Positions 23,133 through 61,560 of a stretch of 64,000 nt of DNA are shown here, in pieces. The notes beneath the pieces were generated by a model, which was not told the origin of the DNA, ran no database searches, and saw only the letters and a list, made by a program, of their open reading frames with translations. Position 1 is the first letter of the stretch, and the number at the start of each line of letters is the position of its first letter. The stretch covers positions 275,528,001 through 275,592,000 of the forward strand of contig OZ024741.1 of assembly GCA_964016885.1 (NCBI GenBank). Direction: 5' to 3'. A program made the translations under genes and the position numbers. This stretch comes from Eledone cirrhosa (Eukaryota).

Positions 23133-23154
23133 TATATATATATATATATATATA

Positions 23155-26100
23155 TCTAACTTTGAAATGTTTTGGCCAGTATTGGCCCAGGCCATGTCTA
23201 ACTTAATAGCACCACCTGGCGAAGTCTTTCAACTCAGGATTTGGGCACCATGGCCCATTCGAGAAGAGAATTACTGTTTGCGGAGACATATCCGGGTGTG
23301 GGTGGTTTGTCCGGGATTACTTGGAGGAATTTCTCCAAAGACTTCTTGAATTTTGTGTGGTCAGTTTCTATTTTGACGTGTCCTGGTTTGATGTTGAAGA
23401 GAGCAGGGCCAATTGAGGTGAAATAATTGTGCCATATTGTTGTTATGTGTTGCGATTTAGATTTTTGTTTGGGACGGATAGCACGGGGCCCAAGCCTTGG
23501 GTGTATTTTGAAGGTGATGCCAACATCATTTGGGCAGTGCTGATGAAACATTTTCCACATCATGCAGATAATATAACGCTCACGGCGACGTTGGAGTGAG
23601 TAAAGTTTTAGCTTTTCTAGTTGACCCCAGTAGTCAAGGTCTGACATGCCATCTATCTTTTTCGTGATTGCCCTTTGGGGAGCTTCAAGTTTCATGATAC
23701 TTTGTTTCGTGTGGGGAGACCACAGTGGACAACAGTATTCAAGGTGTGGTCGGGCAAAAGTGGAGTAGAGAAGGATAATGGTGTGGGAATCTCTCGACTG
23801 GAAGGTTCTGAGGATCCAGGAACACATTCTGCGGGCCATGTCAACTTTGCTGCTTATATGCGTGGCCCAGCTTATGTTGCTGTCCACGGTTACTCCCAAG
23901 TCTCTGATGTTGTTAGATGCCACGAGAGTTTCACCGGAGTGAAGGGAGTACGGGAGTTTCAGAGCATCCTCTTTTCCAAAGTGGATCAGTTCGAATTTGT
24001 CTTCTCAGTCACATGTTGTTCTTTTCCGCCCATTGGGTAACAGCCAGAAGGTCTGACTGAAGGCTTATCCGGTCATCCACGCCATTGATGACGTTTTGGA
24101 GCTTGGAATGATCAGCGAAAATTCTAATGTTGCTGTGTTTGATGTCAGTGATGTCATTAATATAGATGATGAAGAGAAGTGGGCCCAACACAGTGCCTTG
24201 TGGGACCCCACTACTGACTTTGGCTGGGCTGGATTTGACTCCTTCGACTACATGTTGGGTTCTGTTTGACAGGAAGCTCTTGATCCACTGTAGCAGCTGT
24301 CCAGTGACACCAATATTGGACAGCTTTCTCAGTAGAATGTTGTGATCAACCCTGTCAAAGGCCTTGCTGAAATCAAGGTAGATAACATCAGTGTTGGAAC
24401 CCTCTCCCAAGGCTCTCAAAATGTCATCAAAGTGATGCAGTAGCTGCGTCAGGCAATCCCTTCCATTACGGAATCCATGCTGGTTGGAGTTCAGCATATT
24501 GTTACTCTCAAGGAAGTGAGTGATTCGCGATCTCACCACTCTCTCAAATACCTTAATGATATGAGAGGTGAGTGAGATTGGACGGTAATTCACGGCAAGG
24601 GATTTGTTTCCTTTTTTGAAAACTGGGACAACAGACTGGGATAGGTTTTCTGGTACATATCCAGCATCCAGTGAGTTCCGCCACAGATTGGCAAGAGGAG
24701 ATGCAAGTTGGTGTTGATATGCCTTCAACACACAAGCAGGGAACCTATCGGGACCTACTGCTGAATTATGCTTGATTTCCTTTATTGCCACTAAGACATC
24801 AGGGGCACCAAACGTTATGTCCGATAAGGTGTAATGGGGAGTAACATCGCCGATACAGCCCAGATCGGCCATATCAGGATTGCTGAAAACAGAGCAGTAT
24901 TGTTTTTGCAGTATCTCACCCATGGTTTTAGCATTGTCTTGAAGAGTGCCATTTTCATCAATTAGTGCCATTTTCATCAACAGTAGAGCCAGTGATTTTG
25001 TGTTTTTTTGCAAATGAAAAGAACACTTTGGGATTGAGTTTGATCTTCTCAATGGCCCAGGCCTCTTCAGCTCTTCTCTGATTGTTGATGATAGACATCA
25101 TATTGTTTTGGAGGTTATGTTTTTTAATCTCTAGTGATGAAATGGCAGTCAAGTTTGTGTGTTGCTGCTGACAGTATTTCAGCTTGTTGATTTTTTTGTT
25201 AGTTCTCTTAATTTTCCTGATGAGCGTTTTTTTTATTTCTAGGGATTCTGCTCTTAGATTTGTTTCTAGTTCTTAATGGAGTGTGTTTTGCACATATCTT
25301 TGTAACAGTGTCCACAAATGTCTGCCAGGACTTTTTGATGTTAGTGGGTGTATGAGTGTGCGTGAAGGACCAGTCGACGTGTGCAAGATCATGACTGATC
25401 GCTTCCCAGTTTGCATTGTGGAAATCCATAGTATCAAACGGATGGACAGAAGAGATGACATTGGGTTTGTATATTGGACGGTGGAATATCAGATCACAGA
25501 GAACCATGTCATGATCAGAGAGTAGAGTTTTCTCCACTGTAATATTGTGGATATTGTCAGTGTGATTGCTGAAAATTAAGTCTAGGACGTTTTTGTGGCA
25601 CCTCGTTGGTTCGAGCACCAGTTGGGACAGGAAGAAATCCTCCATGAAGTCAAGAAGCGATTCCACTGCTTCCCTGTCAGAGGTTGAGGCAGAAGAACTT
25701 GGTGGCAGGCTGTTTGTGGACCAGTCAACTCCGGGGAGGTTGAAGTCCCCCATCATTAGGATGTTGTCAGGGTGACACTCTTGGATGAAACACTTTATGC
25801 TGTTGAGGCATTCCTTGAAGCATGGTGGAGGCGTTTGGGGTGGCCTATAGAGCCCAACTACTATTAGGTTGTTGGTTTGACAGAATACAGTGACTGCTTC
25901 GCAGTATCCATTAGTAAATATGTTCAAAGCCTCTGTTGAGAAAAAATTATGGACATAAATGGCAGTCCCACCCTTTCTTCTGCCAGCGCGATCAGCACGG
26001 ATGGCTTTGAAATTTTTCACTTTCACCTCGGCTTCCAAGTGGAGGTTACTGAGATGGGTTTCAGTGAGGACGAAGAAAGAGATGTGGTTTGGATGGACAT

Positions 26101-26988
26101 CAACCCAATCCTCCAGGAATTTGATCTTCCATTTTTGAGTATTGGTGGAAGGGCTGATGCCTTGGGCGTTAAGCAAAAATGTTGAGGCGAGAGTGGATGG
26201 TTTTAATTGTTTTGGTGTGTTGTTAATTTGTTTGTTTGTTAATGGCAGCAATGGGAGTTTGTGCAGTGGGGTGATAGTGGAGGGTGGTGCTGGGTGATAG
26301 CTCCGAATGTTTTTTTTCAGTTCTTTTGCCAGATTCATTATGGCTAAAAAAGAGGAAGAAGTTTCCTGTTTAGGAGACTGTTGGTGACTGTGGTAGTAGT
26401 TATTTTTATGTAGGTTATGGTTTTTGTTTTTGCTTTTATTTTTATTTTTATTTTTATTTTCATTTGTCCGACGGGTCCCCGGGAGATGGGTAAAGGGACA
26501 ATCCCGGTGTAAACACAATCTGTCTCGCAGGGAAAAGCGGCAGATTTGTGGATTCCTTGTTTGAGTTATTGGTGGTTGTGTTGGTGTTAAATTAGAGTAT
26601 GTATTATGGTGGTGGCTGTTTGTGGGGATAGACCGTTTTGTCCTAGGTAAATGGGTGAATTTGCAGCCACTATCCGTACATATTCTATAGCGTAGAGAGT
26701 AGCGCCAAATGATGGGGTTTCGAGTGGGTGTGTATGTATGTATGTGTGTGTGTTGTGAGAGGTGTAGATGATGGTTTGAGTAGGTTTTGACGACCTTTGT
26801 GGGCTGTGGGAGGGAGAGTTATTGTACTGGTATTAGAAGGGAAATTCCTTGAGATAGCAGTAGGCAAAGATGTTGTAGTAGTAGGCAGTGGTGATGATTG
26901 GTCTGTTGGGGTAGAGAAAGGAAGTGGCGTTTCCTGCTGTGAGGCAGTGGCTACTGGGAGGTCAATAGTTTCATTTAGTAGATCGGCC

Positions 26989-27387: not shown

Positions 27388-28655
27388 TCATCATCATCAT
27401 CATCATCATCAACGTTTAACGTCCGTGTTCCACGCTTGCATGGGTTTGGACGGGGGTAGTCCCACTTGAGGCAAGAGTGATTGTCTTGCTCGCATAGGAC
27501 TGTCTGGCAGGTTTTCTACAGTTGGATGCCCTTCCTAACACCAACCACATTTACAGTGTGGGTCTGGGAGGTTTTTACCGTGTTGCCTACACGGCCACAT
27601 TACAGCGTGGACTGTGTGTTTTTTTGTCGTGACACCTACACGATCTCATTTGTTTCGGCCTCGATGGCGCGGCACCAACATAACTTTACATAGAACGGGG
27701 TGGTGTGGATGGGGTGGGGGCGGGGGTGGTGGGACGGGGTGTATTTTGTTAGAGATGCCTACTGGCTGGAGTAGGTTTTACTATATATTTAGGTAAGGCG
27801 GGTCTTCTCTGTTACTGAGTACCGCCAAAGGTCTCGGTCCAGTGACATTGTCTTGGAGAGGTGTAAGTGTGTGATGTCGGAGTTTATCAGCTCGTCCCAG
27901 GTTTTCCTAGGTCTGCCTATTCCGTGACTACCGTCTATCTTTATTGCCCTGCACTTTGTTATACAGCTATCGACTTTCATGCGCATCACGTGTCCATACC
28001 AACGTAGCCTTCTCTCGAGTAAACAACATCTGATCCCTCTTATCTCTAATTTTTTCCTTAGTTCGTTTATGCTTTGCCGTTCACGTATATTACTGTTACA
28101 CATCCAGCGGAGCATGCAAGCTTCGTTCCTCTCTAGTCTGCGTATATCCTCTGCACACAATGCCCAGGTCTCACTGCCGTGCAGCATTGCTGTTCGTATG
28201 CAGGCATCGTACAACCTGCCTTTCATTTTTAGTGAGAACCCTTTAGCAGCTAATAGTGGTATAAGCTCTCTGAACTTTTTCCAACCAGTTCTGACTCTAG
28301 CTACAGTACTTTCAGAGCACCCTCCCCCACTGCTGATTTTATCGCCCAGGTAACGGAAGCTGTCCACTATTTCTATAGAACCCTCTGCGCAATTGAAAGA
28401 GCTAGTAGTTTGTGGGCACTTGCTGCTACTTATTGCACCAGAGCACCGGCCACATGTAAAATCTATGTTCTTAGTTAGCTTACCTGTGATCCCACTACAT
28501 CTTTTATGCACCCATACTTTGCATTTAGGACATAAAATGGAGTTTCTACCTACGCCTTTCCTACACACCGAGCACGACCATTTCCCAGAAGGGACCGCCG
28601 CCTTGTTTTCTTTCCTACAAACTAGTACTTTGGTCTTAGCCAGGTTAATTTTAAG
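27388..28655 (-). mobile_element. RTE-clade LINE 3' portion (family A) with Cys-rich insert, full 3' UTR and (ATG)n tail
   Basis: ORF 27789-28568: [25 protein letters not shown]...FRYLGD...MLHGSETW...GRPRKTW. Terminal hairpin-like GTCCGTGTTCCACGCTTGCATGGGTTTGGACG next to (CAT)n. Confidence 0.92.
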
Positions 28656-28817
28656 TCCAGGTTAATTTTATATATATATATATACATATATATATACATA
28701 TATATACATATATATATACATATATATACATATATATATACATATATATACATATATATATACATATATATACATATATATATACATATATATACATATA
28801 TATATACATATATATAC

Positions 28818-29020
28818 TTCCAGAGTTGACATTGCACTCAGTGCTCCTTTGGGAGCCCCTACATGGACACACTAGAAGGGGAAGACCAAGGTTGACATAT
28901 GTTGATGCCCTGGGGGCAGACACTGGTCTGTTGGAGATGCAGGATATGGCGGCGATAATGAGGGACAGAGACCGCTGGAGAGAACTCGTCCATGGATCTC
29001 GGGAATTTTACCCGCCTTAG
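28818..29020 (+). mobile_element. RTE-like LINE 3' fragment (family C)
   Basis: [21 protein letters not shown]...[11 protein letters not shown] is a typical RTE/RTEX C-terminus. Second copy at 61561. Confidence 0.8.
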
Positions 29021-36118
<7,098 letters not shown>

Positions 36119-36884: not shown

Positions 36885-39800
36885 ATAGGTAAATATACAT
36901 GGGTGTGTATGATTGTGTATAGAAGATTATATTAATAAGAGGAATTCCAACTTTGTCTGATTTACTCGTTTTATTTACAATCCTTTAAAATATATATAAT
37001 ATGGTATTATAATGAAACAGTATGATAGAATATTAAATTCTAAGTGTTAATTGAACAAGTACTTTCATGCTTTCGCAATCTTCAGGTTCATGATATGTGG
37101 TGACAGTCGAGTTTGCAATTTTCAACTGTAATGAGATGGGTAAATTTACTACCTTTTATACATTTTATACAGAGAAAAGTGGCTCCAGAATGCAAAGCCC
37201 TGTAAACTGTATTTCGACCAATCAGTGTGTAGTTTCACTGAATTACTATAGCTGATTGGTTTAAGCGTCACGGCTGGTTGAGCATGCTAACGACCAATAG
37301 TCATACCCAACGTATCAATTGTTTTGCTTTTTGAAATGATGAAAATAGCATTTTCTATTAATCATCACCATCAACATCACTTTTATTATTATTATTATTG
37401 TTGTTGTTGTTGTTGTTAGTGGTCGTGGTCATAGTGGTAGTAGAAGTAATACCCCTAGGCGTTATTATTGTTCATTTAGCTTGGGTTTGAATTTATCAAT
37501 AAAATTCTTTTCTTTGATTTTTCTCTTGATTTCACTTGGGCTGTGTAATTTGTAGAATGGGAATATTATAAATATTCCCTGACCACATGTTGCCAGGTGG
37601 CCGCTTAGGGGTATCTGACGGACATTTGGGTCTCTGATTTGTTGACGGTGTACCCGTGCACGTTCCGATAGTGCATTTCCAGTTTGACCGACATATAGTT
37701 CTTCACAATTCGGGCATTTAATGCAGTAAATTAGATTTCTGCTTTTGCAGTTCATATTTGCATTTGGGAATATTTTTCCAGTTTTTGTTTTCATATATTG
37801 ACCGGCGTGTATGGATTGACATGTGCCGCATCGATTATCATTGCATTTAGATACAGTGAATGATTGGTCTTTGTTGTTAAGGTCAAACTTTGCTTTTGTT
37901 AGCAATTGCTTCAAATTTTTTGGCTGTCTTTTACTAAGAGTCAAAGATCGATCTGTGATTAAGCCTTTTAATTCATTACTTTGAGCAATGATCGGTAGGT
38001 TTGCTTTGGCAGTGTTGAAGATATTCTGGTGACATGGGTTGTGTGTCATTATAAATGGTATGACCAGTTCTTGGTTTCTTCTTCCTTGGGTTGTTCTAAG
38101 TTGTTGTATAGGTATTTTTATAGCCCGCTGTATGCCATTTTCTATAAGTAGAGATGGGTATTTTTGTTTGAGCAAAAATTCTCTTAGTTCTGTTAGGCGT
38201 TTGTACCTGGTATTCGTATCTTCTACAATGGTACAAATTCTTCTGGCTAGGCAGTATGGGATATTGCGTTTTGTATGAGGTGGATGGCACGACTTAAAAT
38301 TCAGATATTGATGGGTGTCTGTGTGTTTATAATATATATCCGTGGTAATGGTGGTGTCGTTTTTGATTATCATTATATCTAGGAATGGTAATTTGGTCCT
38401 ACTCATCTCTTTTGTGAATTGGAGAGATGGGTGTAGGTTATTCAGGAGGATATTGAACTCATCCAAAGTATCTAGAGATTCTGTCCAGATGATGAAACAG
38501 TCGTCAAGGTATCTCTTCCAAGATTTTTCAATGTACTTTCTAAAGTCAGTACTATATTTTTCCTCTATTTCTTGGTAGAGTTGTTGTTCTAAGTATCCCA
38601 TTACAGAGTTCGCGTAAACGGGAGCAAACTTCGTTCCCATCGCTGTGCCTCTAATTTGGATGTAATTCTTTCCATTGAAGAAGAAAGTGTTGTTTTCCAG
38701 AATAAGTTTAACTGCATCTAATATAAATGGCGCTGTGAATCTAATGGGAATCACTTCTCTGTTTTTCCACCCAGTATTTAACCGCCTTTATTCCTAAATC
38801 ATGTGTAATGTTGGTGTAAAGGCTTACCACATCAAAACTGAGTAGAAGTGAATTCGTTTCCGTGGTTTTGGGAAGATGGGACAGGAAGTCGATATCATCC
38901 CGGATGAAACTGGGTATGTGAATACATAGTGGTTTCAAAATAATGTCAACAAAATTGCTTAGACGGTGAGTGGGGCATGTTGGACCAGCTATAATAGGTC
39001 TAAGTTTTAAGTCTTTTGGGTGTAATAATTTAATGTACTCACTGTTTTGTTCTCTTACTGCCAGTTGTATTTCTTTTGATTTGTGAACTTTCGGTAGGCC
39101 ATACAGGTTGCTGGGTTTCGGCTCAAAATTGGTGATGTAGTCTCTTTCCTTATCAGTAAATGAGTTGTGGTATTTTGAAGCCAGGTTGTTGATCTTCTTC
39201 ATGATGTTGTGGTCTATATTTGACGGTATTTCATGATAGAATGTTGTGTCTTTCAGTTGTTCCTCAACCAAATCCTTGTAGTATTCAGTATCCATTATAA
39301 CAACTGCACCCCCTTTATCTGCTTGTTTAATTATTATTGTTTTATCATTTTGTATACGTTTAAGTGCAGACATTTCTGATTTGTTAATGTTTGGCCTAAC
39401 ATTAGTATTATGTCTAAGAGGAAATTTAGACAGGATGTCAATGTATTGGTCGAGATAGATATTTCTTCCTTTTGGCGGAGTGAAATTTGATTTATTCTTT
39501 ACTAGTGATTCATCACTCTCATTATTTTATCAGCGAAGAATTCTACAAGACGTAATTTTCGACAGAATTCTTGGGTATCCTCCTTCAGTTCTTGGTGGTT
39601 GACTGTTGGAGTCGGTGTGAATTTCAGTCCTTTTGACAGAATTTGCATTTCATCATTGTCAAGATCTCTTTTAGATAAATTAATTATTTTAGGATCTACG
39701 TGTACAGCTGTTTTGGGTATGTTTCCTCCTGGAGTTTTTCTTTTTCCGGTTTTTGTTGTCCTGACGTTAAAAAATGAATTTTTCTCTGTTCAGGATTTAT

Positions 39801-40972: not shown

Positions 40973-44319
<3,347 letters not shown>

Positions 44320-44414: not shown

Positions 44415-49712
<5,298 letters not shown>

Positions 49713-50519: not shown

Positions 50520-50551
<32 letters not shown>

Positions 50552-50553
<2 letters not shown>

Positions 50554-51170
50554 CATCATCATCTTCGTTTAAGTCCATATTCCACGCTCGCATGGGTTTG
50601 GACGGGAGTTTTCCCACTTGAGGCAAGAGTGGTTGTCTTGCTCGCATAGGACTGTCTGACGGGTTATCTATGGCTGGATGCCCTTCCTAACACCAACCAC
50701 ATTTACAGTGTGGAATTTGGAGGTTTTACCGTGTTACCTACACGGCCACATTACAGCATGGACTGTGTGTTTTTTGTCGTGACACCTACACGACCTCATA
50801 TGTTTCGGGCTGTATGTAGTGGCACCAACATAACTTTACATTGAAAGGGGCGGTGTGGATGGGGTGGGGGTGGTGGGACGGGGATGTATTTTGTTAGAGA
50901 TGCCTACTGACTGAAGTAGATTTCACTTTGCACTTAGGTAAGGCGGGTCTTCTCTATTACTGTGTAGCGCCAAAGATCTCGGTCCAGTGACATTGTCTTG
51001 GAGAGGTGTAAGTGTGTGAAGTCTGAATTTATCAAGTCGTCCCAGGTTTTTCTGGGTCTGCCTACTCCATGGCTACCGTCTATTTTTATTGCCCTGCACT
51101 TTTTTATACAGCTGTCGTCTTTCATGCGTATCACGTGACCATACCAACGTAGTCTTCTCTCGAGTAAACA

Positions 51171-52434: not shown

Positions 52435-53812
52435 TCATGATCATCATTTTATGTCCGCTTTTCCCTGCTTGAAAGGGTGGGACGGGTCTTATTCAGCACA
52501 GCATCTCTCCACTCGTCACGGTTCCTCGTCAGCTCCACCGTGAGCTTCAATGATCTGAGTTCTGTTCTCACCACCACCGCCCATGTTTTTTGTGGTCTAC
52601 CTCTACCACGTCTTCCTTCAACTGACATTTCCTGGCACTTCTTCACCCATCGGTCATCCTCCATGCACATCACATGTCCATACCGCCTCAGTCTCCTCTC
52701 CCGTACACTACATTCTATCCCTCTCAGACATAGTTTCTCTCGCAGCACATTTATGCTGGGTCATTCACGCACATCCAATGGAGCATGCTTGCCTCATTTC
52801 TCTCCAGCCGTCGCATATCCTCTGCAGTTGCTGCCCATGTCTCACTACCATGCAGCATCGCGCTCCTCACACAGGCATCATACAACCGGCCTTTCGTACG
52901 CAGGGAGAAACCCTTCTTCGTCAACAGAGGAAGCAGCTCCCTAAACTTCTTCCAACACGTCCTTATTCTAGATACTATGGCCTCGGAACACCCTCCTCCC
53001 ATGCTAATCTGATCTCCTAGGTACCGGAAGCTATCCACCACTTCTATAGCGCCCTCTTGCATTTGAAAAATGTGTCTATCAGTGCGACTTCTGTCTAATT
53101 TCCCTGTACATCTACTGCATACATATTTCTCCCTACCTGTTAGTTTGCCTGCTATCCCGCTACATCTCTTGTATACCCAGGATCTGCATTGTGTGCATTT
53201 TATAGAATTTAAGCCAGTTCCTTTTCTGCATATCGAACATGGCCATTTCCCTGACGGAATCAGGGTTTTGTCCTCTTTTCTACTCATCAACACTTTTGTC
53301 TTAGCTAGATTCACTCTCAGTCCTCTTGCTTCCAACTGCTGTTTCCATAGCCAGAATTTATTCTCTAGCTCCTCTACTGATTCTGCTATAAGAACCAGAT
53401 CGTCAGCATAGAGAAGTTCCCATGGACAGACAGTCTTAAACTTCTCTGTTATGGCTTGGAGGACTATAATGAACAAGAGCGGACTGAGAATCGAACCCTG
53501 ATGTACTCCTACTTGTATCTGGAATTCCTCACTAAACTCCATTCCTACCCTGACTTTGCTGAGAGTACCTCTGTACAAAGTTTGCACTGTCCTCACAAGC
53601 CATTCCTCAACACCTAGCTTCCTTAGGGACCACCGGATGACAGATCGGGGTACCCTATTAAAGGCCCTCTCTAGGTCAACAAAGGCTAAGTACAGTGGCT
53701 TATTCTTCTCTAAGAACCTCTCTTGCAATTGTCTCACCAAGAAGAGGGCATCTGTTGTACTCTTCCCAGGCACAAAACCAAACTGCATCTCATCTAGTTT
53801 GACCCTTTCTCT

Positions 53813-53816
<4 letters not shown>
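52435..53816 (-). mobile_element. RTE family B LINE, RT and C-terminal part, frameshifted
   Basis: [60 protein letters not shown]. Confidence 0.93.
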
Positions 53817-53859
<43 letters not shown>

Positions 53860-53920
53860 CACCAACTTTTACGCTAAACTCTTCACTATATTCGTTGTTA
53901 ATTCTAACCTTGCTGACTAT
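53860..53920 (-). mobile_element. 60-bp RTE fragment, mirror image of 57033-57080
   Basis: [21 protein letters not shown]. Same 5' breakpoint as the plus-strand copy. Confidence 0.75.
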
Positions 53921-54321: not shown

Positions 54322-54811
54322 ATAAAATAAAATAAGATAAATAAATACATACACAAGCACAATAACAAGAAGCACATAAACACACACTAGTCACCCAGCA
54401 AACATAACACTATACACACTAGTCACACAGCAAACATAACACTATACACACAATCAAACGCATGCGCAAAGAAGACAAAATAAAATAAACAAACAAGCAA
54501 ATAAATAAATAAATATATAGATAGACTGAATAAAAATGGCATAGACATACAACACAACAGGAGGAAAATATAACACCACTGACGATGTTGCAGATGTGCA
54601 ACGAAAGATTTATGTAAACTATATATATGTGTTTGTCTATATTATATCTGTATTATTTTTGACCGTCGGTCAGTCAATGGCAACATTGAGGACCGAGTAA
54701 GTTAGATTACAGATATAAAAGACAGCGAGAAGCGAAAACCAACCAAACAGTGAGTGTGTTCTGTTATTAATTCTGGCAATATTATTACACAAATATGACC
54801 CTCCCAAGTAT

Positions 54812-54817
<6 letters not shown>
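54321..54817 (+). mobile_element. PLE 3' non-coding end (inverted paralogue of 55745-56270) with HHR-like motif at ~54572-54633
   Basis: Reverse complement of the UTR behind the GIY-YIG ORF at 56282-56578. CUGACGA-U GUUGCA gaug UGCAAC-GAAA core, weak stem I. Ends ...TGACCCTCCCAAGTATAACAA|(TA)n. Confidence 0.65.
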
Positions 54818-54860
<43 letters not shown>

Positions 54861-54867
<7 letters not shown>

Positions 54868-55703
54868 AATTTATATCTAGTAACATTTATATACTCACAG
54901 ATGCATATCAATGCTAGCAAATATATAGGTTTTGTCTTATTAACAATGTGGTTCAATGCATGGGGTTGCAGAACAATAATATGAGAGACGTAAAATAAGA
55001 AAATTATAAAATTAACTTACTTACTAAAAAATCACTTCCAACTAATTAGTTTCTGGAATGGAGTAAATATATTTTCCGAAGAAACATATAGAAAATCATT
55101 CCGTCATCAGGAAAGTCTTTTTCCGAATAGGTCTTCAGGCATAGCGAGGACACTGGAAACTTATTAAAAAAATAATTCAGTGGAATGGAAATAGCGAAGC
55201 GTGGACTGGATTCCAAGCCATTGAGAAAATCACTGCCTCTACGTCTGTGGCAAATTCAAAAAGAATCAATCACGTGACATCGAGGTCAATCAGTGGAAAG
55301 CGAGTGGTTATTAAGACAGCGGCCAGCTTACTACCATAGTAGCAGTCATGGCCAAATATTGCTCGACAAATGAATTGGAGATAATTATAAGGAATTTATA
55401 TCTAGTAACATTTATATACACACAGATGCATATCAATGCTAGCAAATATATAGGTTTTGTCTTATTAACAATGTGGTTCAATGCATGGGGTTGCAGAACA
55501 ATAATATGAATTATTTTTTTAATAAGTTTCCAGTGTCCTCGCTATGCCTGGAGACCTATACGGAAAAAGACTTTCCTGATGACGGAATGATTTTCAATAT
55601 GTTTCTTCGGAAAATATATTTACTCCATTCCAGAAACTAATTAGTTGGAAGTGATTTTTTAGTAAGTAAGTTAATTTTATAATTTTCTTATTTTACGTCT
55701 CTC
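54861..55703. mobile_element. Retrozyme-like element, 525-bp unit, head-to-head inverted: ~1.2 units minus (54861-55509) + ~0.4 unit plus (55507-55703)
   Basis: 54861-54984 repeats at 55386-55509. 55507-55703 is the reverse complement of ~54983-55179. HHR in each arm. (TA)n on both sides. Confidence 0.8.
55570..55652 (+). ncRNA. Type I hammerhead ribozyme with enlarged stem II (minus copy at 55034-55116)
   Basis: ACUUUC-CUGAUGA-C GGAAUG...CAUUCC A-GAA-ACUAAUUAGU-U^GGAAGU: 6-bp stem I, palindromic stem III, GUU triplet. Confidence 0.8.
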
Positions 55704-55744
<41 letters not shown>

Positions 55745-55749
<5 letters not shown>

Positions 55750-56611
55750 ATACTTGGGGAGGGTCATATTTGCGTAATATTGCCAGAATTAATAACAGAA
55801 CACACTCACTGTTTGGTTGGTTTTCGCTTCTCGCTGTCTTTTATATCTGCGATCTAACTTACTCGGTCCTCAATGTTGCCATTGACTGACCGACGGTCAA
55901 AAATAATACAGACACAATGTAGACACAAACACATATATATAGTTTACATAATTTACATAAATCTTTCGTTGCACATCTGCAACATCGTCAGTGGTGTTAT
56001 ATTTTTTCCTCCTGTTGTGTTGTATGTCTACGCCATTTTTTTTTATTCAGTCTGTCTATATATTTATTTATTTATTTGCTTGTTTGTTTATTTTATTTTG
56101 TCATCTTTGCGCATGTGTTTGGGTGTGTGTATAGTGTTATGTGTGCTGTGTGACTAGTGTGTATAGTGTTGTGTCTGCTGGGTGACTAGTGTGTGTTTAT
56201 GTGCTTGTTGTTATTGTGCTTGTGTATGTATTTATTTATCTTATTTTATTTTATTTTATTTTATTTTATTTATTTACTTATTTATACTTCTCTTAGGTCA
56301 GTGTTGTTTGTTTGGGTGTTGTTGTTGTTCCACTCATTCTTTCTGTTTAGCTTTGGTCTTCTAATTTCTATTTCACTGACCTCTCTGATTTGCCTATCTG
56401 CTGGGTCATTCCTATGTTTAGATATTATTCTAATTTCTATGTTGTCTATGTTACCGTCATGTTGTTGTCTAGCATGTTCGTATAGTACTGACCCGTTTTT
56501 TCGTCCTTTTAGTTCCCCCCAGTGTTGGTCTATCCTTTCACCTAGTATAACAATATCTGTTTCGACACACGATTTCATATAAAAAACCTCGCTAAACTAA
56601 TTCATCGCCGC
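55745..56611 (-). mobile_element. Second PLE family: GIY-YIG C-terminal remnant plus 3' UTR with HHR-like motif (~55928-55998)
   Basis: ORF 56282-56578 LGERIDQH...SVLYEHARQQH...RQIRE...PKLNRKNEW resembles the R..H/H/E/LN tail of PLE GIY-YIG domains. Confidence 0.7.
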
Positions 56612-57032: not shown

Positions 57033-58142
57033 ATAGTCAGCAAGGTTAGAATTAACAACGAATATAGTGAAGAGTTTAGCTCTGTTCTTAGCTCCCTACT
57101 ATTTATTATTGCCCTTCAGGCTATAACAGAGGAGTTCAAGACCGGCTGCCCATGGGAACTCCTATACGCAGATGATCTAACGCTCATAGCTGAATCAATG
57201 ACCGAACTAGAGAAGAAATTCCAAACATGGAAGCACGGCCTAGAATCAAAAGGCCTTAAAATTAACCTGGCTAAGACTAAAGTTCTAGTTTGTAGGAAAG
57301 AAAACAAGGCGGCGGTCCCTTCCGGGAAATGGCCATGCTCAGTGTGTAGGAAAGGCGTAGGTAGAAACTCCATTTTATGTCCCAAATGCAAAGTATGGGT
57401 GCATAAAAGATGTAGTGGGATCACAGGTAAGCTAACTAAGAACATAGATTTTACATGTGGCCGGTGCTCTGGTGCAATAAGTAGCAGCAAGTGCCCACAA
57501 AATACTAGCTCTTTTAATTGCGCAGAGGGTTCTATAGAAATAGTGAACAGCTTCCGTTACCTGGGTGACAATCAGCAGTGGGGGAGGGTGCTCTGAAAGT
57601 ACAGTAGCTAGAGTCAGAACTGGATGGAAAAAGTTCAGAGAGCTTATACCACTATTAGCCGCTAAAGGGTTCTCCCTAAAAATGAAAGGCAGGTTATACG
57701 ATGCCTGCATACGAACAGCAATGCTGCATGGCAGTGAGACCTGGGCATTGTGTGCAGAGGATATACGCAGACTAGAAAGAAACGAAGCTTGCATGCTCCG
57801 CTGGATGTGCAATAGTAATATACGTGAACGGCTAAGCATAAACGAACTAAGGAAAAAATTAGAAATAAGAGGGATCAGATGTTGTTTACTCGAGAGAAGG
57901 CTACGTTGATACGGTCACGTGATGCGCATGAAAGACGACAGCTGTATAACAAAGTGCAGGGCAATAAAGATAGACGGTAGCCACGGAGTAGGCAGACCCA
58001 GACAAACCTGGGACGACATGATAAATTCCGACCTCACACGCTTACACCTCTCCAAGACAATGTCACTGGACCGAGACCTTTGGCGGTACTCAGTAATAGA
58101 GAAGACCCGCCTTACCTAAATACAAAGTAAAACCTACTACAG
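57033..58142 (+). mobile_element. RTE family A LINE fragment (RT YADD to C-terminus), frameshift and stop
   Basis: [39 protein letters not shown]. Runs into the gap. Confidence 0.93.
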
Positions 58143-58342
58143 NNNNNNNNNNNNNNNNNNNNNNNNNNNNNNNNNNNNNNNNNNNNNNNNNNNNNNNNNN
58201 NNNNNNNNNNNNNNNNNNNNNNNNNNNNNNNNNNNNNNNNNNNNNNNNNNNNNNNNNNNNNNNNNNNNNNNNNNNNNNNNNNNNNNNNNNNNNNNNNNNN
58301 NNNNNNNNNNNNNNNNNNNNNNNNNNNNNNNNNNNNNNNNNN
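58143..58342. other. Assembly gap (200 N)
   Basis: Run of n. Confidence 1.
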
Positions 58343-58351
58343 GGAATCCCC

Positions 58352-58396
58352 AGTCACTGAAGAGGTCACAGAGTGTGTGACGAAAGGACTATGACT
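58352..58396 (+). ncRNA. Type I minimal hammerhead ribozyme in a probable PLE 3' end (58343-58559)
   Basis: AGUCA-CUGAAGA-G GUCACA gagug UGUGAC-GAA-AG ga CU-A^UGACU. Segment ends TGACCCTCCCAAAGTATAACAA|(TA)n, like ~54797-54816. Confidence 0.8.
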
Positions 58397-58558
58397 ATAT
58401 ATAAGCAACTATCTGGTTGTGGAACCAACCAACCAACCAGAAATTTATAAGTTTGTAAATTTGTAAATTTATAAATTTATAAATATATAATAAATTGAAG
58501 TGAAAGCAACTGGTGCGTGTGTTTCTTATTGGCAACATGACCCTCCCAAAGTATAACA

Positions 58559-58559
<1 letters not shown>

Positions 58560-58592
<33 letters not shown>

Positions 58593-58611
58593 GTATATAT
58601 ATATGTATATA

Positions 58612-58654
<43 letters not shown>

Positions 58655-58667
58655 GTATATATATATG

Positions 58668-58700
<33 letters not shown>

Positions 58701-58815
58701 GTATATATATATATATATGTATATATATATGTATATATATATATATATATATGTGTATATATGTATATATATATCTATATATGTATATATATATGTATAT
58801 ATGTATATATATATG

Positions 58816-58846
<31 letters not shown>

Positions 58847-59244
58847 GTATATATGTATATATATATGTATATATGTATATATATATGTATATGTATATAT
58901 ATATGTATATGTATATGTATATATATATGTATATGTATATATGTATATATATATGTATATATATATATATGTATATATATATATGTATATATATATGTAT
59001 ATATATATATATACATATATATATATACATATATATATACATATATATATATATATACATATATATATACATATATATATATATATACATATATATATAC
59101 ATATATATATACATATATATATACATATATATATATACATATATATATACATATATATATACATATATATATATACATATATATATACATATATATATAT
59201 ATACATATATATATACATATATATATATATACATATATATATAC

Positions 59245-59301
<57 letters not shown>

Positions 59302-59342
59302 CATATATATATACATATATATATATATACATATATATATAC

Positions 59343-59400
<58 letters not shown>

Positions 59401-59401
59401 G

Positions 59402-59452
<51 letters not shown>

Positions 59453-59483
59453 GTATATATATATATATATGTATATATATATG

Positions 59484-59530
<47 letters not shown>

Positions 59531-59531
59531 G

Positions 59532-59564
<33 letters not shown>

Positions 59565-59628
59565 GTATATATATGTATATATATATATATATATGTATAT
59601 GTATATATATGTATATATATATATATGT
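58560..59628. repeat. (TA)n microsatellite
   Basis: Seen directly. Confidence 0.95.
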
Positions 59629-61187
59629 ACAATATATTTAGAAACACACAGATACATGCGGACACACACATATATACATGAATGCATCCGCACCCAACTG
59701 TGAGTTAAGGGTGCCAACTTCACCGATGTTGCTCAATGAGTGACCGGGACAGACCAATTCAGTTGAACTAGACTGAACCAGTATCAGAGTTAAAAATACA
59801 TTATGAAGAGAGAAGAAACATTTAGATATAATTAGTAATAAAATGTATCATACCTAAACTGCTCCTAAATTCCTCGACTACGTAGTTTCGTGGCATAAAC
59901 AAAAACAATATATCATAAAGATATAGAGTCCCTGCGAGGTCTGCCGACTTATCAAGAGGATACCTCATTTTACTAGTCTCAAGAACGCGTCTACACGACG
60001 TGAGAAAGAATCCCAAAAGGCGGAGGGGGAGATAGTCACGCGCTATAACGGTCGAGAAACAGAGCTAAGCCTCTTATAACCACGAAGAAAATACCACGGA
60101 GGCGGAGGGGGTATTCATATCGAGGCCGCAGAAGAGGTGGTGAAGAAGGCGAGAAGTATGAGTAATGGAAGCTTTCCAGTTGTCCCCACACTTCAAAGAT
60201 TGCTCGACCAGAGGGAGTTATTAACAATATATTTAGAAGCACACAGATACATGCGGACACACACATATATACATGAATGCATCCGCACCCAACTGTGAGT
60301 TAAGGGTGCCAACTTCACCGATGTTGCTCAATGAATGACCGGGACAGACCAATTCAGTTGAACTCCGCCTTTTGGGATTCTTTCTCACGTCGTGTAGACG
60401 CGTTCTTGAGACTAGTAAAATGAGGTATCCTCTTGATAAGTCGGCAGACCTCGCAGGGACTCTATATCTTTATGATATATTGTTTTTGTTTATGCCACGA
60501 AACTACGTAGTCGAGGAATTTAGGAGCAGTTTAGGTATGATACATTTTATTACTAATTATATCTAAATGTTTCTTCTCTCTTCATAATGTATTTTTAACT
60601 CTGATACTGGTTCAGTCTAGTTCAACTGAATTGGTCTGTCCCGGTCATTCATTGAGCAACATCGGTGAAGTTGGCACCCTTAACTCACAGTTGGGTGCGG
60701 ATGCATTCATGTATATATGTGTGTGTCCGCATGTATCTGTGTGTTTCTAAATATATTGTTAATAACTCCCTCTGGTCGAGCAATCTTTGAAGTGTGGGGA
60801 CAACTGGAAAGCTTCCATTACTCATACTTCTAGCCTTCTTCACCACCTCTTCTGCGGCCTCGATATGAATACCCCCTCCGCCTCCGTGGTATTTTCTTCG
60901 TGGTTATAAGAGGCTTAGCTCTGTTTCTCGACCGTTATATCGCGTGACTATCTCCCCCTCCGCCTTTTGGGATTCTTTCTCACGTCGTGTAGACGCGTTC
61001 TTGAGACTAGTAAAATGAGGTATCCTCTTGATAAGTCGGCAGACCTCGCAGGGACTCTATATCTTTATGATATATTGTTTTTGTTTATGCCACGAAACTA
61101 CGTAGTCGAGGAATTTAGGAGCAGTTTAGGTATGATACATTTTATTACTAATTATATCTAAATGTTTCTTCTCTCTTCATAATGTAT
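59629..61187. mobile_element. Retrozyme-like element, 595-bp unit, head-to-head inverted: ~1.2 units minus (59629-60364) + ~1.4 units plus (60363-61187)
   Basis: 595-bp period (59629/60224; 60372/60967). Strand flip at ...gttgaaCTccgcc... Three HHR copies. (TA)n flanks. Confidence 0.83.
60428..60517 (+). ncRNA. Variant (U3-A8) type I hammerhead ribozyme with enlarged stem II (copies 61023-61112 plus, 59871-59960 minus)
   Basis: UCCUC-UUGAUAA-GU c GGCA...UGCC AC-GAA-ACUACGUAGU-C^GAGGA: stem I UCCUC/GAGGA, palindromic stem III, GUC triplet, compensatory C3G8 to U3A8 change. Confidence 0.78.
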
Positions 61188-61198
61188 ATATATATATG

Positions 61199-61310
<112 letters not shown>

Positions 61311-61469
61311 TATGTATGTATATATATTTATATATGTATATATATATATGTATATGTATATATATGTATAATATATATATATATATGTGTGTATGTATAT
61401 ATATTTATATATGTATATATATATATTTATATATGTATATATATATATATATGTATATGTATATATATG

Positions 61470-61548
<79 letters not shown>

Positions 61549-61560
61549 GTATATATATAT

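Follow-up and report, generated by a model that had tools for sequence, protein, structure and literature searches.

The element at positions 59629–61187 of the window (the whole 64,000-nucleotide stretch of Eledone cirrhosa DNA that was analysed) is, judged from its sequence, a real and young insertion of a non-LTR retrozyme in the inverted layout known from Penelope-like elements (PLEs). Two arms of a single 595-bp unit, 736 and 825 nt long, lie in inverted orientation and are joined 5′-to-5′ with a 2-nt overlap inside a (TA)n tract. We consider it probable (roughly 65%) that PLE machinery wrote this element by using both cut target strands as primers. The head-to-head polarity was already known, and what this locus contributes is the geometry of its arms, neither of which is contained in the other. 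By itself, the locus offers limited insight into the copying of such repeats into a genome.

Architecture of the inverted element and its hammerheads

Self-BLAST and the mapping of unit phases, in which phase 1 is the first base past the predicted hammerhead cut, reproduced the coordinates, unit length, arm lengths, and outer ends given in a first-pass annotation (Table 1). Direct matches at an offset of 595 nt were found within both arms, and inverted matches between the arms showed 99.5–99.7% identity. With the right-arm unit as reference, the arms carry four substitutions and no indels, which is compatible with a circular and a linear multimeric template alike. The left arm matches the right arm over 569 of its 736 nt, and the first 397 nt of the right arm are an inverse match to the left arm, followed by 428 nt more. 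The arms are circularly permuted relative to each other, as the annotation had claimed (phases 107 to 247 versus 446 to 80), and this permutation probably corresponds to the one-sided lengthening of the 3′ end that is usual in PLEs, which here amounts to 167 nt. The CT microhomology that it had placed at the junction was also seen, although an overlap of 2 nt alone has p = 0.15. The final 3 nt of the right arm match the target repeat, or 6 nt if the G variant of the tract is counted, and the match at the left outer end is 1 nt.

Table 1. Positions of the features within the window
Feature	Positions	Strand	Remarks
One-armed 480-bp hammerhead array	31044–34063	−	Other type: short helix II, 2-nt loop III; 6 hammerheads
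Frameshifted Neptune-type PLE	36888–39789	−	RT, Cys-rich linker, C-terminal GIY-YIG; frame 37465–39789
Sister head-to-head array, 485-bp unit	44492–49601		5 + 6 hammerheads; 2-nt overlap at 46866–46867
Sister head-to-head element, 525-bp unit	54861–55704		1 + 1 hammerheads; 3-nt overlap at 55507–55509
Left (TA)n target tract	58559–59628		248 nt adjoining the element: 17 G and 0 C interruptions
Left arm, 736 nt	59629–60364	−	Phases 107 to 595, 1 to 247; RNA 3′ side faces left, to the TA tract
Type I hammerhead, left arm	59871–59960	−	Predicted cut after 59876
Head-to-head junction	60363–60364		2-nt overlap (CT), without inserted bases
Right arm, 825 nt	60363–61187	+	Phases 446 to 595, 1 to 595, 1 to 80; RNA 3′ side faces right
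Type I hammerhead, right arm	60428–60517	+	Predicted cut after 60512
Full cut-to-cut unit, 595 nt	60513–61107	+	42% GC
13-nt motif, copy in the 595-bp unit	60650–60662	+	11 of 13 positions; common to the 485- and 525-bp units
Second right-arm hammerhead	61023–61112	+	Predicted cut after 61107
Right (TA)n target tract	61188–61560		28 G and 0 C interruptions

The element occurs once in the 64-kb window and had no match in 50,697 phage records. The longest ATG frame of the unit is 48 aa on either strand, which ruled out a coding role, and unlike an autonomous PLE, the element contains no reading frame for RT and GIY-YIG. The sense strand of the unit folds strongly (z = −6.6; in a second run with 12 shuffles, −5.7 versus −0.7 for the antisense strand). 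The unit contains two copies of a 12-nt C-rich box, at phases 360 and 442 (59992–60005 region), and the right arm begins inside the second copy; these boxes may be candidate GC-box promoter elements.

Both flanks have the same strand polarity and are not mirror images. Because only G interrupts them, they form a single continuous tract around the element, and the palindrome is confined to the element. Each end is bordered by a 5-nt variant of the repeat, but this variant is common in the tract, and (TA)n blurs any target-site duplication. TA tracts lie on both sides of all four hammerhead arrays in the window. More generally, the TA tracts are interrupted by either G or C alone over blocks of a few hundred bases, and this strand polarity switches from block to block within a tract (for example, at 29000–31040, 34060–36110, 41000–43500, and 58559–59628), which suggests inversions inside the microsatellite.

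A type I hammerhead was found by pattern scan in all three passes of the unit that cover the site, with a 5-bp helix I, a U3–A8 pair replacing C3–G8, a 59-nt helix II domain, and a helix III whose 6-nt palindromic loop lies inside a 10-nt self-complementary stretch. The constrained active monomer fold lies 1.1 kcal/mol over the minimum. The descriptor, which requires a palindrome and was adjusted after the motifs had been seen, matched none of 2000 dinucleotide-shuffled versions of the unit, nor did it match the antisense strand. Its 23 matches in the window all fell within five elements (3 in the 595, 11 in the 485, 2 in the 525, and 6 in the 480 element, and 1 behind the Neptune frame). Rfam returned no matches at gathering score in the 64 kb, and the 23 weak matches over the 595 element included no hammerhead family. 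Six hammerhead candidates showed no notable local folding (z-scores from −1.6 to +1.1), and the ribozymes are therefore called from their core and helix pattern. Aligning the three ribozyme regions with MAFFT put the cores out of register, and that alignment was set aside. The 595-, 485-, and 525-bp units carry three different 6-nt palindromes, each within a 10-nt self-complementary stretch, and this divergence points to selection for the dimeric form; hammerheads with a palindromic helix III are described, in the available part of PMC4209133, as cleaving poorly as monomers and having low activity without dimers.

Sister arrays and other elements in the window

Two further head-to-head elements share features with the 595 element. 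In the 485 array, the left arm measures 2376 nt and the right arm 2736 nt, the junction is nearly symmetric, its inner ends falling 16 nt from each other at an imperfect inverted repeat (chance approximately 0.07), and the antisense strand of the unit folds better than the sense strand (z = −3.9 versus −1.5). A strong hairpin at this junction was not counted because it includes bases of the other arm and so arises by construction. As a circle, the 485-bp unit holds a 113-aa ATG frame, and its right arm shows five single-base gaps, which are probably sequencing errors. In the 525 element, the right arm (198 nt) is nested in the left arm. Thus, the annotation's statement that each arm exceeds one unit holds for the 595 and 485 elements but fails for this 198-nt arm.

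The 485- and 525-bp units have a 15-nt identity in common (shuffle p = 0.01), and its 13-nt core recurs in the 595-bp unit with two changes; further copies in the 595 element start at 60333 and 59738 on the minus strand. This core groups the three elements as one clan, which has the ribozyme layout, the motif, and the polarity in common, and the three are therefore not independent across families. All three inverted arrays in the window are head-to-head, as had been noted in the first pass, and the coin-flip chance of this is p = 0.125 (one-sided) to 0.25, which by itself falls short of significance. A contrast between the clan (inverted in 3/3) and the other elements (0/4; p = 0.029) was rejected as weak, since two of the four are poorly identified; the 104-aa frame of those two had no Pfam match and scored −0.4 bits on the Neptune profile.

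In the one-armed 480 array, unit phase 171 alternates strictly between A and G over six units, giving a 960-bp dimer period. This fits the copying of a dimeric circle or the amplification of a dimer, and an assembly effect is also possible, since the site lies in a TA run. The frame of the Neptune-type PLE has RT and GIY-YIG Pfam matches, and the element is so named because its Cys linker fits the CX2-5CxxC linker described for the Neptune clade (PMC8557442). A minimal hammerhead lies 408 nt past its stop, and 169 nt beyond the predicted cut, the 3′ end of the element borders on a TA tract. Among 2269 candidates, 384 relatives of the frame were found, the best named of which were bivalve proteins (52–58%). 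PLE machinery thus exists in this genome, and it is only a candidate mobiliser of retrozymes. When the 595-bp unit was compared with four PLE-like ends in the window, only AT/TG-rich patches aligned.

When bacterial and archaeal genome contigs were scanned with a Neptune alignment, 16 candidate stretches yielded two loci, neither of which aligned with the 595-bp unit. An inverted repeat was present in neither, and their only match to the 13-nt motif (two mismatches) lay at the border of the coding match. In one of the two (1659–2021), on a 2-kb contig from a bacterial assembly, a Neptune-like frame with 44% identity is followed by a minimal hammerhead with the same core as that of the Neptune element in the window; this locus is likely host DNA in that assembly.

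The window consists almost wholly of repeats, with a 200-N gap at 58143–58342. Related segments at 54322–54818 (+) and 55746–56611 (−) (475 matches, 16 mismatches) face each other across the TA tracts of the 525 element and, together with 58344–58558, have a 24–25-nt end motif that abuts (TA)n. The two facing segments look like PLE 3′ ends, tail-to-tail with target DNA between them, the endonuclease call from the 104-aa frame being weak. Outside this pair lies an identical inverted 47-bp piece of an RTE-like LINE (53873–53919 and 57035–57081), both copies of which are cut at the same base adjoining TA; they may mark an earlier inverted duplication around the tract into which the 525 element was later inserted. 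Fragments of LINEs (RT-bearing) and SINE-like sequences occur in multiple copies between the TA tracts (23135–26200 on the minus strand, 27389–28658, 50550–51170, 52435–53815, and 57035–58142). Positions 1–20160 form a 20-kb satellite with a 24-bp period, approximately 830 copies, and a strong G skew, whose minus strand, judged by eye, may encode a mucin-like repeat.

Proposed priming from both target ends and its alternatives

In target-primed reverse transcription, the RNA 3′ side of each arm is tied to the target, so two primed ends can meet only 5′-to-5′. Priming from both target ends would accordingly yield a head-to-head product and an array that is multimeric from birth. By this logic, the suggestion of the first pass that the common polarity reflects a mechanism is supported; the pattern is already published, and the inference is not new from n = 3. 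In the mechanism that we propose, a source array would be transcribed into an RNA longer than one unit, or into a circle, to which a PLE RT–GIY-YIG protein would bind before cutting both strands of (TA)n. Going by the geometry, each target 3′-OH would then prime cDNA internally, shortly past the hammerhead (phases 247 and 80). As the sequence shows, both cDNAs crossed intact hammerhead cut sites, one and two of which are seen in the respective arms; their ends would finally anneal over 2 nt and be repaired.

The junctions of the three elements all overlap by 2–3 nt (2 nt in the 595, 2 nt in the 485, and 3 nt in the 525 element) without an insert (p = 0.005). Four of the six outer ends match the TA target over at least 3 nt (p = 0.002 when ends are sampled from the first 250 nt), and when the 480 end is included, five of seven do (p = 0.00015 by count, 0.024 by sum). 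All six outer ends lie within 250 nt past the cut (p = 0.011, post hoc), and in each element they fall on either side of the 13-nt motif, at phases 57–82 and 179–247 (247 and 80 in the 595, 188 and 82 in the 485, and 179 and 57 in the 525 element). The inner ends (107 and 446, 238 and 254, and 56 and 386, respectively) all lie away from the cut, and a cut site is crossed in each arm; the template would therefore be an uncleaved multimer, a circle, or template-jumped monomers.

The gap from the right-arm 3′ end to the left-arm 5′ end is 26 nt in the 595, 155 nt in the 485 (65 nt with the arms paired the other way), and −2 nt in the 525 element, with a combined p of 0.043 for the best of two pairings and 0.020 for a fixed pairing, both post hoc; the 26-nt gap alone has p = 0.17. 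The values of 26 and −2 nt in two of the three elements hint at twin priming on one uncleaved multimer. Within priming from both ends, we therefore tentatively entertain one shared uncleaved multimer as the template of both arms, regard two separate templates as rather unlikely, and hold one circle to be improbable. A pause site near the upstream start, combined with two templates, would be expected to give the same abutment. In its fullest and more doubtful form, the proposal is that PLE proteins carry out twin priming on one uncleaved multimeric retrozyme RNA, beginning at two preferred internal starts (approximately 57–82 and 179–247 nt past the cut) that bracket a conserved, putatively protein-binding motif, and that the first cDNA stops at the second primer.

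Inverted copies could also arise by self-priming, in which antisense RNA or nascent cDNA folds back, is copied to a hairpin, and is integrated. This model was published for PLEs from palindromes at inverted junctions (PMC3846280), and it agrees with the near-symmetric 485 junction at its imperfect inverted repeat and with the nested right arm of the 525 element. However, at the 595 locus, the fold-back would have only 2 bp to close a loop of 256 or 339 nt, the left-arm end of the junction forms no local hairpin (z = +0.62), and target-anchored cDNA supplies neither arm in full; since the arms are not contained in each other, fold-back of such cDNA cannot write the element. The 485 array likewise has a right arm longer than the left arm, the source that a short fold-back must copy. 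A variant with a long free antisense RNA that is trimmed at integration may be considered, but overall we judge self-priming unlikely. We think it quite unlikely that a tandem insertion or satellite was rearranged later in DNA, whether by an inversion with breaks in the element and the TA tract or by two insertions fused through a deletion. Such events would suit (TA)n, which is self-complementary and unstable and whose polarity flips in blocks across the window, as well as the probable older inverted pair around the 525 element, and a 2026 preprint, in its available part, favours local amplification for retrozyme arrays (bioRxiv 10.64898/2026.07.22.740005). Yet TA bases occur in none of the three junctions, which would require a break exactly at the element end three times, the arms are 99.5–99.7% alike, and random fusion would yield both polarities.

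That the structure is an assembly or library artefact, from fold-back chimeric reads or a mis-join in TA-rich DNA, is very improbable: the palindrome ends at the element and the flanks do not mirror each other, the two arms have different end phases and carry four substitutions with no indels, and the same geometry appears in three unrelated unit sequences. The 200-N gap, the long TA tracts, and the five single-base gaps in the 485 right arm speak for this explanation, and such structures are known to trouble assemblies (PMC8557442). Priming from both target ends has points against it as well. The sample is three elements of one clan, and the tests were chosen after the data had been seen. The 485 gap misfits the abutment expected of twin priming on a single RNA, and the 485 inner ends lie as self-priming predicts. 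The target match is 1 nt at the left end of the 595 element and 0 nt at the right end of the 525 element, the 485 antisense strand folds better than the sense strand, and the unit has no sequence link to a PLE end in the window beyond AT/TG-rich patches.

A retrozyme with a PLE insertion signature supports mobilisation by PLEs and arrays that are multimeric at birth. If twin priming on a single RNA is true, retrozyme arrays would be written as multimers in one event. Periodic templates would then provide a genome-wide readout of twin priming versus self-priming and of linear versus circular templates, for which the phases of arm ends can be counted without bench work.

Comparison with known systems

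By the sequence criteria in the available parts of PMC7229834 and bioRxiv 10.64898/2026.07.22.740005, the 595-bp unit is a non-LTR retrozyme. Like the metazoan examples described there, it has non-coding tandem units of less than 45% GC with a type I hammerhead per unit, in a genome that has PLEs. Its length lies within the 51–972 bp of the preprint but exceeds the 170–400-nt RNAs of the first-described retrozymes (PMC7229834), and its arrangement in inverted arms differs from these elements as described. Inverted retrozyme arrays were not found in the available main text of either source; the word "inverted" is absent from PMC7229834 and occurs once in the preprint. Both sources infer, rather than demonstrate, the partner and the template of retrozymes in animals. 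Among the matches listed in literature searches, supplements being outside their scope, no paper combined retrozymes with inverted and head-to-head arrangement, and no octopus and hammerhead ribozyme paper among those listed concerned such arrays by its title. By title and abstract, with poor coverage of subscription papers, no paper on a PLE mechanism of twin priming for inverted copies was found.

Twin priming has been described for L1 (PMC2912911, available part), and it resembles the mechanism proposed here in that both target ends prime, the 3′ sides face outward, and microhomology occurs at the junction and the ends. The present elements differ in having no poly(A) tail and internal starts at both ends, and their periodic template gives repeated sequence in the arms, while a target duplication is indefinable in (TA)n. 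According to the available part of PMC11167929, the purified Poseidon PLE protein cuts and extends both target strands and starts inside the RNA, at two sites in an AC-rich stem-loop, using mainly uncleaved RNA. By subtraction (111–118 and 26), these starts lie 85–92 nt past the hammerhead cut. The tail of that in vitro element is 30–40 nt, compared with 106–167 nt in the 595, 485, and 525 elements.

The hammerheads resemble the minimal PLE hammerheads of PMC4209133, as far as its available part describes them, in a helix I of 4–5 bp, a long helix II, a palindromic loop III, and G10.1–C11.1, and the U3–A8 variant of the 595-bp unit is reported in Schistosoma. Pairs of minimal PLE hammerheads on opposite strands, approximately 100–700 bp apart, were noted there in 2014; the opposite-strand cuts of the three elements are 636, 477, and 606 bp apart. 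Unlike those hammerheads, the present ones are in regular tandem units of 485–595 bp, and the 595-bp unit has no unpaired base between positions 9 and 10.1.

Head-to-head is "the most frequently observed" inverted PLE arrangement (PMC3846280), and an inverted 5′-truncated copy at the 5′ end is a common PLE feature, although the mechanism of tandem and inverted PLE insertions has been called undefined (PMC8557442). The 595 element differs from PLE insertions in having no RT or endonuclease gene, in an end difference of 167 nt (106 and 122 nt in the sisters) instead of 30–40 nt, and in two arms that both cross the hammerhead site and exceed one unit. It agrees with insertions of endonuclease-bearing PLEs in the head-to-head copy at the 5′ end, the (TA)n targets, the partial tandems, and probably the one-sided extension (PMC3846280, PMC8557442).
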